Shown piece by piece: positions 4,017 to 36,879 of a DNA stretch of 64,000 nucleotides. How positions within the stretch are numbered: position 1 is the stretch's first letter; each line of letters opens with the position of its first letter. The translations under genes and the position numbers were made by a program. Below the pieces are notes generated by a model, which was not told the DNA's origin, did no database searches, and worked only from the letters and a program-made list of their open reading frames with translations. Source of the stretch: Macrostomum lignano (taxonomy: Eukaryota); assembly GCA_002269645.1 (NCBI GenBank), contig NIVC01000570.1:310001-374000 (forward strand), written 5' to 3'.

Positions 4017-4290
4017 GAAAAAAAATCTACTACTACTACAACTACTACTACTACTGCTACTACTACTACTACTACTACTACTACTACTACTACTACTACT
4101 ACTACTACTACTACTACTACTACTACTACTACTACTACTACTACTACTACTACTACTACTACTACTACTACTACTACTACTACTACCACTACTACTACTA
4201 CTACTACTACTAATACTACTACTACTACTACTACTACTACTACTACTTCTACTACTACTACTACTACAACTACTACTACTACTACTACTA
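4017..4290. repeat. (CTA)n microsatellite
   Basis: Long ctactacta run producing poly-L/Y/S/V ORFs. Confidence 0.98.
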
Positions 4291-4568
4291 TTCGATCCGT
4301 TGGACATCACTGTACATCGCGTCATGTTCATTGACGATGTTCGACCATAGCTGTTCGATCCCAAGTCTGACGCCATGGTGAGTAAATTAGTACATATATA
4401 GATTGTTGATAATAAATTATACAAATTAATGTAAATTATCAATATTGTTGATACTGATGTACATGAATGTGTCTTGTTCATCAGGTTCCGCTCCTACGGT
4501 TGATCGCTGGGGACACCTTCAATGTCAACCAGAGGTATCAATCGATAGTGAGTCACCATCTGCGAGAC
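4289..4568 (+). pseudogene. Partial duplicate of the SF3 helicase gene (Walker B region, intron, start of exon 2)
   Basis: Near-identical to 9519-9790, including the GT-AG intron; carries an extra nonsense change (gag to tag). Confidence 0.85.
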
Positions 4569-4572
4569 TGAA

Positions 4573-5264
4573 AAACCAACTGACAGATGTATATTAATTA
4601 GTAAGCCGAGAAGGATCACAATGTTTTATATGTTGCTTCTGCCATTTTTAAATCGTTTGTACATATATATTATTTATTTATGCGATTATACTTTGCTCAT
4701 GGTTTGTACATATTAATGGATCCATAGTTGGTTGGCTGACTTTGTTTCAAAGCGGTCGATTCATTGTGTTGTTAAATAATCGTGTGTAAAGTGCATGCCG
4801 TTACCGTTCTGCATACGTTATAAAATTTGTTTGTATAAATATTTAAGTGGTTTATTGACCAAGATTCCGTTGCTGGTTGTTGACGCCAAAACTGTGTCCG
4901 AGTCATGCACATACAATTTCAGATGGGTCAAGATTTTAATCATGGCCGGTTGTTGTCAAACTTGTCCTCGTAGATGCCAAATGTGTGGATTATAATTGTC
5001 AATGTTGCTGTGCTAGTGACTGTAATAAAAACTGTTAACATTGTGTATGTATATATGTATGTATGTATGTATGCGTCTGTTTGTCAAAGCTGTGCTCAAT
5101 TGAGACAAATCTGTGTGCATGACTAATAACCGATATAACAGAAAAAATAAAAAAATCAAACCAGCATACGAACAATGGATAATAAATGTCAATAAGCTGA
5201 TTAAAATCTTCGTTTAATTATAATATAGTTTCAATAAACATATAGTTACAAAGGTGAGCAATTC
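4573..5264 (+). repeat. ~690-bp direct repeat, copy 1 (segment A)
   Basis: Runs aaaccaactgacagatgt...aaaggtgagcaattc; matches 12242-13755 once the solo LTR is removed. Confidence 0.9.
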
Positions 5265-5740
5265 AGCAGTGATGATCTCTGCCATCCACCTTGATGCATC
5301 AATCAATGCAGCCAGCCGGCCAACCAGACGTGCATTCAGGCAGTCAGTCAGTTAGCATATATACATGCAAAATAAAATATGCATTGTCAGCTACTACTGA
5401 AAAAAGTATTAAACCATAACCATTAATCTCTGCCTGCCTGCCTGCCTGCCTGCCCGACTGAACTACAATAATTCATTCATTCCCTCTATACCCTCTCCCC
5501 CCGCACTAACCCTAACCCTAACACATAAAACAAATTTTTTTCGGGGGGACCGCTGCGCTAACCGAGAAATGTGAAATTTCTCTAAGTGTCAAAATTATTT
5601 TGACTTAGAAAATTTTCGCGCTGAAATTTTTTTTTCTTTCATTTCGTCTACTAAACTGCCTGATGCTGCCTGTGGATAATTTATCTTGAAAGAGGGTTAG
5701 AGGGGCCCGTCCGTTGCTGTCTCAGGAGGTAACTTATCAT

Positions 5741-33445: not shown

Positions 33446-35825
33446 ATGACTGTTGACCATGCTGACGGCGTCGACAATGTATTGTCTGACAGTGACACTG
33501 TCATATTAGACAACAGTGATGAAGCATACGACGGTATCGACGAGTCTGTAGATGGCAACACAACGTATTATACGTGTAGTCCAATGCACTCGAATGGCGA
33601 CTGTTGTTCAGTGACCAACGAGGAAATTGACGCAGCCGCCGACGCAGATGATCCGATGCTCGACAATCTCGACGGGGACGCCGACGAACAGATGATGGTG
33701 GTGGTGGGGCACCCCACTACCGGCGCGCCTGGCGCGCCTCCCAACGCTGCCACCTTCTCGCGGTGGGACCGACTGGGCGCCCGCCCAGCAAAGTGCAGCA
33801 ACACCCCGGACCCTGGGAAGAGTGCAGAGCGCGCTTTCGGCGCGTCATTACCACGTCGGCATTCTTTTGCCAAGCTGGCCCTGGCTCCCCAGCCCACCTC
33901 GGCCAGCTTCTCATCCGGGCTGGAGACATCGAACAAAACCCGGGACCAGCCTTCCCGTGCGGAGCCTGCAATCAGAATGTCACCCGCAAAGACTACTCCA
34001 CCCGCTGCTCCTCTTGCCTTCGCTGGTGGCACCGCCGTTGCAGCAACCTTAGCATAGCCGAAATCAACATCGGTCGTGACCGGAGACTTTGGCGGTGCGC
34101 AAACTGCCGTCAGCCGACGGCACAGACGGACAGCCGAACGCCGCCGCCTGACCCGCCTAGCCTGCCAAACCCGCCTCCCCCGGTCCACCGTCGGACTGAA
34201 AACATGGCCACGTATCCGACCGACGGGACTCCGCACGCTAAAAACGCTAAAAACAAAGACAATGCAAATTTTCGCATCATACAACTCAATACAGCCGGCC
34301 TCAGAGCTCGACGCCTCGAACTCCTCCGATTCCTCGAAGAACACCAAGCGGACATTGCCTGCATCCAGGAATCGAATCTGTCGCCCACGTCTCAGGTCCC
34401 GCGCCTCCCCGGTTGGCAACTGGCAGGCCGTAGGGACCACGCTATAAACCGCGACGGTGACGCCACTGCCACTCCCCACGGAGGGGTCTGTTTTCTTGTC
34501 AAGGAAGGCGTGGACTTCGCTGAGTACCGTCTGCCGCAGATAGACGTGACCCGCACTGCATCTGAAGGCTCGGCCATCTCGCTCCACGATAAACGGTTAC
34601 CACGCCCAATTCACATCATCAACCTCTACCTCCCGCCGGTTCGAACCGCCGACGGGCGCCCTGACGGCTTCGACCCGGACTGGCTCCCGACCGGTCCGGA
34701 CGTGCTCATCCTCGGAGACATCAACGCGCACCACGGCATGTGGGAGGATAACTGCGACTCTGAAGACCAGCGAGACTCCGTTTTCGAAGACTGGGCTACC
34801 ACCAACGACTACGTGGCCCTCAACGACGGCGGCCCAACCAGAGTCAACGCCAGAGGCATCACCAGCAGCCCCGACGTCTCCTTCGTCCCTGCCAGCTGGC
34901 AGGACAAGCTGGAATGGAACACCGGCAAACATATCGGATCTGATCACCTGCCCATTATCATTGACGTTATTAACCCAAACCCGTATTTTGGGACGCCTAC
35001 CGCCAGGCCACCACGTGACCCTGCAATGGGTCCCGGGCCACTGCGACCTTCGTCGCAACGATCTCGCCGACGCCACTGCCCGCGCTGCTGCCACTCTTGA
35101 TCAGACCAACGCACCTCTGGATCACCGCAGCGCGCGCTCTGCCATCCTGGAAACGGCCCAAAACGACTTCATCCAATTGTACAAGGCAAACGAGCACTGC
35201 AGCACCCACCGCACCTGCACCAACGGACGACGACCCAAACAGAAAACTTCCATGAACCGTAAGGACAGAGTCCTGCTAGCCCAGCTACGCACTGGCCACT
35301 GCCCGATACTCCGACAGTACCGGCACCGCATCAGGCTGGAACTGGAGGCCACCTGCCCAGCCTGCGGGGAGGCCCCGGAGGACCTCAAACATCTGCTTCT
35401 GGAATGCCGCACCACAACCGAGACCAGACGACAAATCTTGGGCGAGAACCCGACGCTGGCCATCCTCCACGACGACGGCCCGCGCGCACTGCACTTTCTC
35501 CAGGCGGTAGGGGCGCAAACCCGCCCCCCGGATATTAACCCGGCCGGGAACTAACAACAACAACAACAACGAACAGATGATCGACGAACTAGAAGAGATT
35601 GAATTTTTATATAACCAGTTTATCGCGGAACAGCACTCGTCCGGCGACAACACTGGCTTAATCAATCCAATTAGTCGATGTAGCCCGGCTGAGTCTCTGC
35701 GTGATTCAGACGACAATATTCTAGAGGAGTCGAGTTTCTGGAGCGGCGCTCGTTCTGTCGCGTGTCAAACTGACAACATCAGACCGGGCTCTACATCAGG
35801 TCGCATCCGTAGTTGGTCTGTATAA
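33446..35825 (+). pseudogene. ORF4 of the unclassified element (acidic), split by the LINE
   Basis: Excising 33697-35581 restores the frame: ...DGDADEQM-IDELEEIEF...; C-terminal motif shared with ORF3. Confidence 0.6.
33697..35568 (+). mobile_element. Internally deleted Ingi/I-group non-LTR retrotransposon (2A-like peptide, PHD-like finger, APE, RNase H end, C-terminal Cys/His finger; RT missing)
   Basis: 13-bp TSD ACGAACAGATGAT (33684-33696, 35569-35581); (CAA)n tail; DIEQNPGP; CGAC...CSSC...H..C...CANC; QLNTAGL, CIQES, GDINAH, SDHLPI; WVPGH...NDLAD; CPACG...HLLLEC. Confidence 0.88.
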
Positions 35826-35894
35826 TATTAATTATATAACAACATTGTTAAAATGACATATTAAATCTATATAACTACAACATAGTGAGATAAA

Positions 35895-36684
35895 AGGTCA
35901 TATCACCAATTAACAAGGTCACACCATCAGTCAACAATGTCACATCACCAGTCAACGAGGTCACATCACCAGTCGTCGTGGTCACATCACCAGTCTATAC
36001 AGTCACATCAACAGTCAGCATGGTCACATCACCAGTCAGCATGGTCACATCACCAGTCATCATGGTCACATCACCAGTCCACAGGGTCACATCACCAGTC
36101 AGCATGGTCACATCACCAGTCATCATGGCCACATCACCAGTCCATATGGTCACATCAACAGTCAACATTGTCACATCACCAATCAACATAGTCACATCAC
36201 CAGTCCATAAGGTCACAACACTAGCCAACATGGTCACATCACCAGGCAACATGGTCACATCACCAGCCCATAAGGTCACATCACCAGTCAACCTGGTCAC
36301 ATCACCAGCCCATAAGGTCACATCACCAATCAACAAGGTCACATCACCAGTCAACACGGTCACATCGCCAGTCAACACGGTCACATAACCAGTCACCATG
36401 GTCACATCACCAGTCAACATGGTCACAACACCAGTCAACCAGGTCACATCACTAGTCAACATGGTCACAACACCAGTCAACTAGGTCACAGCACCAGTCA
36501 ACCAGGTCACATCACCAGTCGCGTTGGTCATATCACCACTCAATCGGAGTCACAACACCAGTCAACCAGGTCACATCACTAGTCAACATGGTCACAACAC
36601 CAGTCAACCAGGTCACAACACCAGTCAACCAGGTCACATCACCAGTCGCGTTGGACACATCACCAGTCACCCAGGTCACATCAC
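35895..36684. repeat. 21-bp minisatellite, copy 2, inverted relative to 11231-12045
   Basis: Unit catggtcacatcaccagtcaa; same order of variant units as copy 1. Confidence 0.93.
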
Positions 36685-36879
36685 CGCATTTTACCTTTAA
36701 TCAGTTTCATCGTAAAGCCGAATGACACTATCTATCGACAGCGGGAGATTAAATGTATGAAATCGGTTAAGATCGAAAGAAAAGATCGTTTTTTTCTGTC
36801 CGCTGCGAGTCGTAGTTATTTTTCTCTTGTCATCTTCCATACCAGGATAATCTACACGATTTTGGTTTAAAGAAACGAT

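Follow-up and report, generated by a model that had tools for sequence, protein, structure and literature searches.

A putative virus-like element with a spliced superfamily 3 helicase gene, decayed and interrupted by nested insertions in repeat-rich animal DNA

The window analysed here is a 64,000-nt stretch of contig NIVC01000570.1 (positions 310,001 to 374,000), animal DNA rich in repeats, and our subject is a 32,674-nt span within it, positions 4017-36690, in which four insertions totalling 18,112 nt interrupt an underlying sequence of 14,562 nt. At the core of that remainder lie two plus-strand genes, an open reading frame that we call ORF1 and a gene for a predicted superfamily 3 (SF3) helicase, arranged as follows:

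5265-6602: region upstream of ORF1, with a hairpin at 5573-5617, a 76-nt duplication, (CT)38, and (TCAA)n before the ATG
6603-8573, plus strand: ORF1, low-complexity, broken by a short interspersed nuclear element (SINE), a stop at 7579 and a frame change near 7746-7791
8591-9954, plus strand: predicted SF3 (Rep-like) helicase gene, encoding an N-terminal domain, a CxxC linker and Walker A/B, followed by exon 2; stop at 9410
9608-9714, plus strand: helicase intron, 107 nt, phase 0, GT-AG, 23% GC against 51-54% in the exons

Between the stop of ORF1 and the ATG of the helicase there are only 17 nt, a spacing already reported in an initial annotation of this DNA; the four plus-strand ORFs of that annotation, the helicase among them, are all present, and to its gene model we add the intron, which it did not contain. 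Exon 1 carries both Walker A and Walker B, with the remaining helicase in exon 2, and the intron is supported by two proteins from Macrostomum lignano, P0002 and P0003, which match both exons and read uninterrupted through the splice junction. The intron is present and unspliced in the two runs labelled "RNA?", and the 15 of 153 joints listed include no splice joint for it. None of the four ORFs is intact in this copy: a stop and a frame change break ORF1, a stop breaks the helicase, a frame change breaks ORF3, and a long interspersed nuclear element (LINE) splits ORF4. ORF1 has no Pfam match, and a word-index protein search with its second half found no relatives.

Judged by its sequence, the helicase protein is a superfamily 3 member that resembles the Rep proteins of circular Rep-encoding single-stranded (CRESS) DNA viruses, and its family is very small. 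When 1.84 billion protein representatives were searched in full with HMMER, four relatives emerged, every one a singleton cluster: P0002 and P0003, the former a more distant M. lignano member, and two metagenomic proteins, P0004 and P0005 (JGI/IMG and ENA contigs, 1,995 and 1,321 nt), of which P0005 is the only relative with both domains complete. The N-terminal domain, the CxxC with two more cysteines, and the helicase are kept across the four. There is no Pfam model for the family (P0002 against PF00910 gave E 0.006, below the cut-off), and the literature searched, which had subscription papers and Repbase outside its coverage, holds no description of it. P0005 falls in the atlas among CRESS-Rep, plasmid-Rep and parvovirus NS1 clusters with scores of 0.94-0.96, one NS1-type cluster standing at rank 14, and the N-terminal domain finds scores of 0.80 or lower only. 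A profile scan of viral contigs (A5) gave three loci from at least 605 candidates, the best being L001, a 2,128-nt viral contig with a canonical Rep (27% identity over 129 aa), to which profile alignment with hhalign reached a probability of 97% in the helicase part only; another locus, L002, is an RNA-virus-like polyprotein. HUH motif II and YxxK motif III are present in L001, which served as control, and absent from the N-terminal domains of the window protein and of P0005; P0004 has a single HLQ, at a non-conserved column. Viral contigs gave no match for queries P0001, P0005, P0002, A3 and A4, neither A3 nor P0004 had one in metagenome contigs, and phage records gave none at all; in the word-index protein search the helicase ORF had no match and alignment A2 retrieved only P0005 itself. 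PDB sequence searches matched Walker A alone and were set aside.

Other copies of the core occur in public sequencing data. The runs that hold part of 7050-10100 (16 of 24 listed) all carry one organism label, and for four runs we compared the contigs with 4291-10460, or 6,170 nt of the span, bearing in mind the tool's own warning that contig depth is not copy number. In run X1 the depth is 9-14 for five exact-match contigs and 39-68 for three contigs that are 8-13% diverged; in run X4 the corresponding depths are 13-20 and 55-84. M. lignano homeologues differ by about 2.2%, according to the portion of PMC10733133 available to us, which is too little to produce 8-13% divergence if the host is M. 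lignano or similar. There are thus several related, diverged copies, and the ORF1-helicase core is therefore a low-copy repeat family. A SINE-free joint at 6664-7038 occurs in three of the four runs, none of the listed contigs of other copies has the stop at 7579, and the three helicase indels among those listed (12 of 94) all lie within the intron. Contig depth is raised at 5527-5732. For the ORF1-helicase core, the case for a mobile or viral origin has support in the nearness of its SF3 helicase to CRESS-virus Reps and in the several diverged copies present in other samples of the same organism.

Four insertions are nested in the span, each with a target-site duplication (TSD), among them a solo long terminal repeat (LTR) and a Polinton with terminal inverted repeats (TIRs):

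6676-7035, plus strand: inserted SINE with a poly(A) end, very high copy, 13-nt TSD at 6663-6675 / 7036-7048
12436-13252: inserted solo LTR, TGT...ACA ends, 4-nt TSD
14212-29238: inserted Polinton/Maverick, 6-nt TSD, TIRs of ~830 nt
33697-35568, plus strand: inserted LINE, truncated, 13-nt TSD, (AAC)n tail

The initial annotation had described these insertions and had claimed that excising them restores reading frames, and on both counts our analysis agrees: ORF1 is in phase on both sides of the 373 nt formed by the SINE and its TSD, and ORF4 keeps its frame from one side of the LINE to the other. Equally in line with it, the underlying sequence outside the Polinton has no Pfam match to a capsid, transposase or integrase, and no TSD or TIR was found at 4017/36690, where the longest common word is 6-7 nt. 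Its proposal that the element acted as a sink for transposable elements stays unproven, since an LTR remnant and a long ORF resembling a transposase also occur in the rest of the 64-kb window. When random pairs of 50-nt windows were compared as a chance control (50x50 nt, n=2,977), 3 pairs had at least 13 nt in common and 1,028 had at least 6 nt, and the Polinton and LTR duplications therefore rest on position, not length. That of the Polinton sits exactly at the ends of its TIRs, which are ~830 nt long and 92% identical; for the solo LTR, the empty site is kept at 4763-4769 in a duplicate segment (spacer S copy 1, below), and the LTR insertion postdates the duplication of that spacer. We infer that all four insertions arrived later than the underlying element. 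The SINE has a summed contig depth of 10^4-10^6. Pfam matches in the Polinton are to a double-jelly-roll (capsid-like) protein, A32 ATPase, adenoviral protease and rve integrase; its polymerase region is spread over several frames, it also has a phospholipase A2-like ORF (27273-27779) and an adenovirus protein X-like ORF (25787-26242), and its TIRs contain 82-nt tandem repeats. The LINE at 33697-35568 matched APE endonuclease, RNase H and zf-RVT and had no match to reverse transcriptase. Rfam gave 0 matches within 3500-37500, and ARAGORN gave 0.

The minisatellite arrays and duplicated segments of the initial annotation are present too, with repeat units of 76, 45, 21, 23, 22/18 and 21 nt and with duplicates at 4288-4568 and 4570-5264, and the latter bear directly on how the element is built:

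4288-4568, plus strand: partial second helicase copy (exon 1 end, intron, exon 2 start), 96.8% identical to 9518-9798
4570-5264: spacer S copy 1, AT-rich (33% GC), without the solo LTR, directly adjoining the helicase fragment
12239-13755: spacer S copy 2, split by the solo LTR, 97-98.5% identical to copy 1 (12239-12438 and 13253-13755)

The helicase fragment starts directly after a (CTA)88 tract and is matched by P0002 and P0003 in tblastn, and the whole segment 4288-5264 is ~3% diverged from its second copy (97% identical). The ends of the two S copies are 8,491 nt apart, or 7,297 nt once the SINE and LTR are subtracted. The arrangement reads as a probable partial head-to-tail tandem whose first copy has lost a segment, and it frames a unit of ~7.3 kb that would consist of the upstream region, ORF1, the helicase, arrays and spacer S. 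Where the initial annotation had offered a single entity or a tandem of related units, the tandem variant thus fits better, with a ~7.3-kb head-to-tail unit, and a single 14.5-kb element stays unproven.

The right half of the span contains two further ORFs, and minisatellites lie on both sides of the Polinton:

29586-30511, plus strand: ORF3, poly-Q, acidic, frame change near 30080-30284, (TCAA)n before and (TTGA)n after
33446-35825, plus strand: ORF4, acidic, interrupted by the LINE
10473-11049: 45-nt minisatellite array
11232-12051, minus strand: 21-nt minisatellite array, left copy
31252-32406: 23-nt and 22/18-nt minisatellite arrays
35896-36685, plus strand: 21-nt minisatellite array, right copy, inverted relative to the left copy

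ORF3 and ORF4 are paralogous in their 3' parts (45% identity over 76 aa, E 3e-16) and lie in one orientation; neither has a Pfam match, and ORF1 has no protein similarity to them. Strict (TCAA)3+/(TTGA)3+ tracts are found in three places in the 64 kb, on either side of ORF3 and downstream of the helicase; upstream of ORF1 lies a looser (TCAA)n tract. Spacer S copy 1 is followed by the ORF1-helicase cassette, and copy 2, past the Polinton site, by ORF3. The paralogy, the tracts and the placement of S together hint, at the level of sequence, that the right half may belong to the family of the ORF1-helicase element. A short frame at 33385-33449 has a stop overlapping the ORF4 ATG, which would be a coupling arrangement or a further break. 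We take 30680-30880 and 5500-5620 to resemble the ends of non-autonomous Helentron/DINE-type repeats.

The left and right 21-nt arrays share an ordered series of unit variants, and a remnant of the same minisatellite lies outside the span at 48097-48159, beside one copy of a peptide gene that recurs in the window (see below). Directly after the right array, 36695-36765 is upstream sequence of this peptide gene (80% to 3365-3434). Because of that remnant and of the peptide-gene sequence at 36695, the 21-nt arrays could belong to the repeats of the host. In two places, 48097-48159 and 36695-36765, this minisatellite adjoins the upstream sequence of the peptide gene at roughly the same point, once on each side. 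A mucin-like gene was considered for the 21-nt array and stays unproven: the left array is uninterrupted in that frame, yet the opposite strand is open as well, and the right array contains stops.

We favour, with a probability of roughly 55%, the reading that the span is a decayed endogenous virus-like element made up of an intron-bearing SF3 helicase and ORF1, likely the remains of an integrated small DNA virus or episome. The initiator of such an element would attach to the origin and unwind DNA with no nicking step, its N-terminal domain being a catalytically dead origin-binding domain and its cysteine linker binding zinc, as in the initiators of papilloma- and polyomaviruses. Host polymerases would have copied a circular form, and host repair would then have integrated a concatemer, or fixed a local duplication, before the copy decayed; the absence of a TSD or TIR would be expected because host repair leaves neither. 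ORF3 and ORF4 would be accessory cassettes of the same family, and the SINE, LTR, Polinton and LINE would be later arrivals, the LTR after the duplication.

Several observations weigh against this reading. The span outside the Polinton has no nonanucleotide stem-loop, and no fixed ends were found at 4017/36690. No capsid gene came to light, as ORF1, ORF3 and ORF4 all lack a Pfam match, and the likely capsid ORF of control L001 was also unmatched. The N-terminal domain could not be aligned with the HUH portion of the L001 Rep, and its two structure models are of low confidence (pLDDT 40 and 38); viral fold searches with both of these models gave nothing at E 0.001. Introns are uncommon in small circular viruses, and this one would also suit an element long resident in the genome. 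Among the other copies, a 5,064-nt contig of depth 68 matches the window only at 6008-6340 and continues 4.7 kb beyond, five listed contigs of the commoner relatives depart from the window sequence at 8169, and in three bins between 5321 and 6556 the depth falls almost to that of a single copy. Given the exits at 6340 and 8169 and this drop in depth, the unit is not preserved over its whole length. The substitutions, on the other hand, speak for the favoured reading, being synonymous in 5 of 7 cases in the helicase against 0 of 8 in ORF1 (stop site excluded), though in a small, selected sample for which 40 of 578 substitutions were listed, 16 fell in ORF1 or the helicase and 15 were used.

A bolder form of the virus-like reading would make the span an integrated multi-segment member of an undescribed lineage of small DNA viruses or episomes in free-living flatworms. 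Its spliced SF3 initiator, whose origin-binding domain would be nuclease-dead and whose linker would hold zinc, would be an independent parallel to the papilloma- and polyomavirus initiators; spacer S would be the common region of the helicase and ORF3/ORF4 segments, and the intact P0005 would be an exogenous member. We regard this form as unlikely.

If the N-terminal domain is a dead HUH fold, the element would be a further case of the step from a nicking Rep to a pure origin-binding helicase, the step that lies behind the papilloma- and polyomavirus initiators, and a laboratory flatworm would offer a way to study it. Should the core alone prove real, it would add another decayed viral fossil to a genome full of repeats.

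It is also possible, if somewhat unlikely, that ORF1 and the helicase are the only virus-derived parts, and that ORF3, ORF4, the minisatellites and the spacers are independent repeats gathered between two peptide genes. Such a patchwork agrees with the 21-nt array beside a peptide gene at 48097-48159, with the host-type upstream sequence that resumes at 36695, with the departure of relatives at 6340 and 8169 and with the lack of protein similarity between ORF1 and ORF3/ORF4, and tandem repeats make up 15% of the M. lignano genome in the part of PMC5730564 that we could consult. One would not expect of independent repeats, however, that ORF3 and ORF4 should be paralogues in one orientation, that ORF3 and the ORF1-helicase cassette should have flanking tracts in common at both start and end, or that one copy of spacer S should lead to the side of ORF1 and the other to that of ORF3.

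The intron invites two other explanations. An unclassified family of DNA transposons, whose spliced SF3 protein served its own copying and which never formed a virion, would account for a spliceosomal intron and for several dispersed, diverged copies with a more distant M. lignano member (P0002), and its inverted 21-nt arrays could serve as terminal structures; but the left inverted array is inside the unit and not terminal, no transposase, integrase or catalytic nuclease motif was found, nor any TSD or TIR, and copy depth is low, so that we think this explanation quite improbable. An ordinary or domesticated host gene family, with this locus as a pseudogene, strikes us as very improbable indeed. 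The intron and the synonymous bias of the helicase variants (5 of 7) are what one might expect of a host gene, but the relatives number only 4 in 1.84 billion representatives, all singleton clusters, the closest families are viral or plasmid Reps, the four ORFs are all broken here, and the two genes stand 17 nt apart.

Around the span, the window holds about eight intronless copies of a gene for a 60-aa secreted peptide, with flanking sequence of the same kind at the window end:

2815-3549, 39436-39618, 41207-41714, 43223-43741, 46010-46526, 48165-48783, 49901-50199, 50781-51529 and 63875-64000: peptide-gene copies and, at the window end, the flank

The peptide has a signal peptide, an acidic spacer, basic residues and a short His/Phe-rich end with a terminal Gly, a layout that looks like the precursor of an amidated peptide; the gene has no useful Pfam match. 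An exon-like frame at 1415-1711 (minus strand) has a weak Sel1 repeat match (E 0.003), and both the peptide cluster and the element may be situated within that host gene or upstream of it. The frame at 58839-61472 (minus strand) is open for 878 aa, has cysteine clusters and appears by eye to resemble a transposase of EnSpm/CACTA type, with a weak zinc-ribbon match as its only Pfam match. A Gypsy-like gag/protease remnant lies at 54715-56112, LTR-like sequence in 53.6-56.1 kb and 63.2-63.75 kb is similar in style, by eye, to the solo LTR at 12436, and a GC-rich tract near 53930-54200 appears, again by eye, inverted near 63150-63360.

How does the favoured virus-like element compare with known systems? 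With the Reps of CRESS-DNA viruses (Cressdnaviricota) and their endogenous copies it shares a C-terminal SF3 helicase of the PF00910 type, whereas it differs in having no HUH/YxxK motifs and no Viral_Rep or Gemini_AL1 match, and in its cysteine linker and intron. The CRESS nonanucleotide NANTATTAC has seven matches in the window, none of them in the span outside the Polinton, where one-mismatch sites stand at 6299 and 32070; membership of the CRESS viruses fails on the absent nuclease motifs and origin. An endogenous parvovirus was rejected on the lack of a Parvo_NS1 match, of HUH and of terminal repeats at the ends. Helitrons and Helentrons are similar in being large, in having no TSD, in containing minisatellites and gene-like pieces, and in a helicase gene with an intron, but Helitrons have an active HUH nuclease and a superfamily 1 PIF1 helicase, and the candidate falls because the span helicase is SF3, with no PIF1 match and no HUH motif. 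An underlying Polinton or cut-and-paste transposon was likewise rejected, there being no transposase or integrase, TIRs or TSD outside the inserted Polinton. Polyomavirus large T has a zinc site between its domains, to which the cysteine linker of the span helicase may be likened, and no papilloma- or polyomavirus is known to form a genomic repeat family in flatworms. The helicase has no Pfam or PDB match to the E1 or large T families. The likeness to papillomavirus E1 and polyomavirus large T would lie in an SF3 helicase behind an N-terminal domain without HUH motifs, those initiators being described, in the portion of PMC6668415 at hand, as an SF3 helicase behind an inactivated HUH domain that lacks all three motifs.

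Endogenous Rep-like elements are already known from planarians and Hydra. One of them, the Girardia extrachromosomal virus-like element (PEVE), reportedly carries SF3 helicases and inverted tandem repeats. Related to it is the Schmidtea integrated virus-like element (PIVE), and the virus-like elements of planarians and of Hydra (DENSOV_HM) are treated in PMC3198968 and bioRxiv 10.1101/551184, as far as the accessible text of each goes. The accessible text of PMC3198968 describes PIVE and PEVE as virus-like repeats with Rep-like ORFs in flatworm hosts, features that the span would share, and mentions no intron for them, whereas one is present in the span helicase. In its working, the element in the span may most closely resemble PIVE and PEVE of planarians, compared here by description only, together with DENSOV_HM of Hydra.

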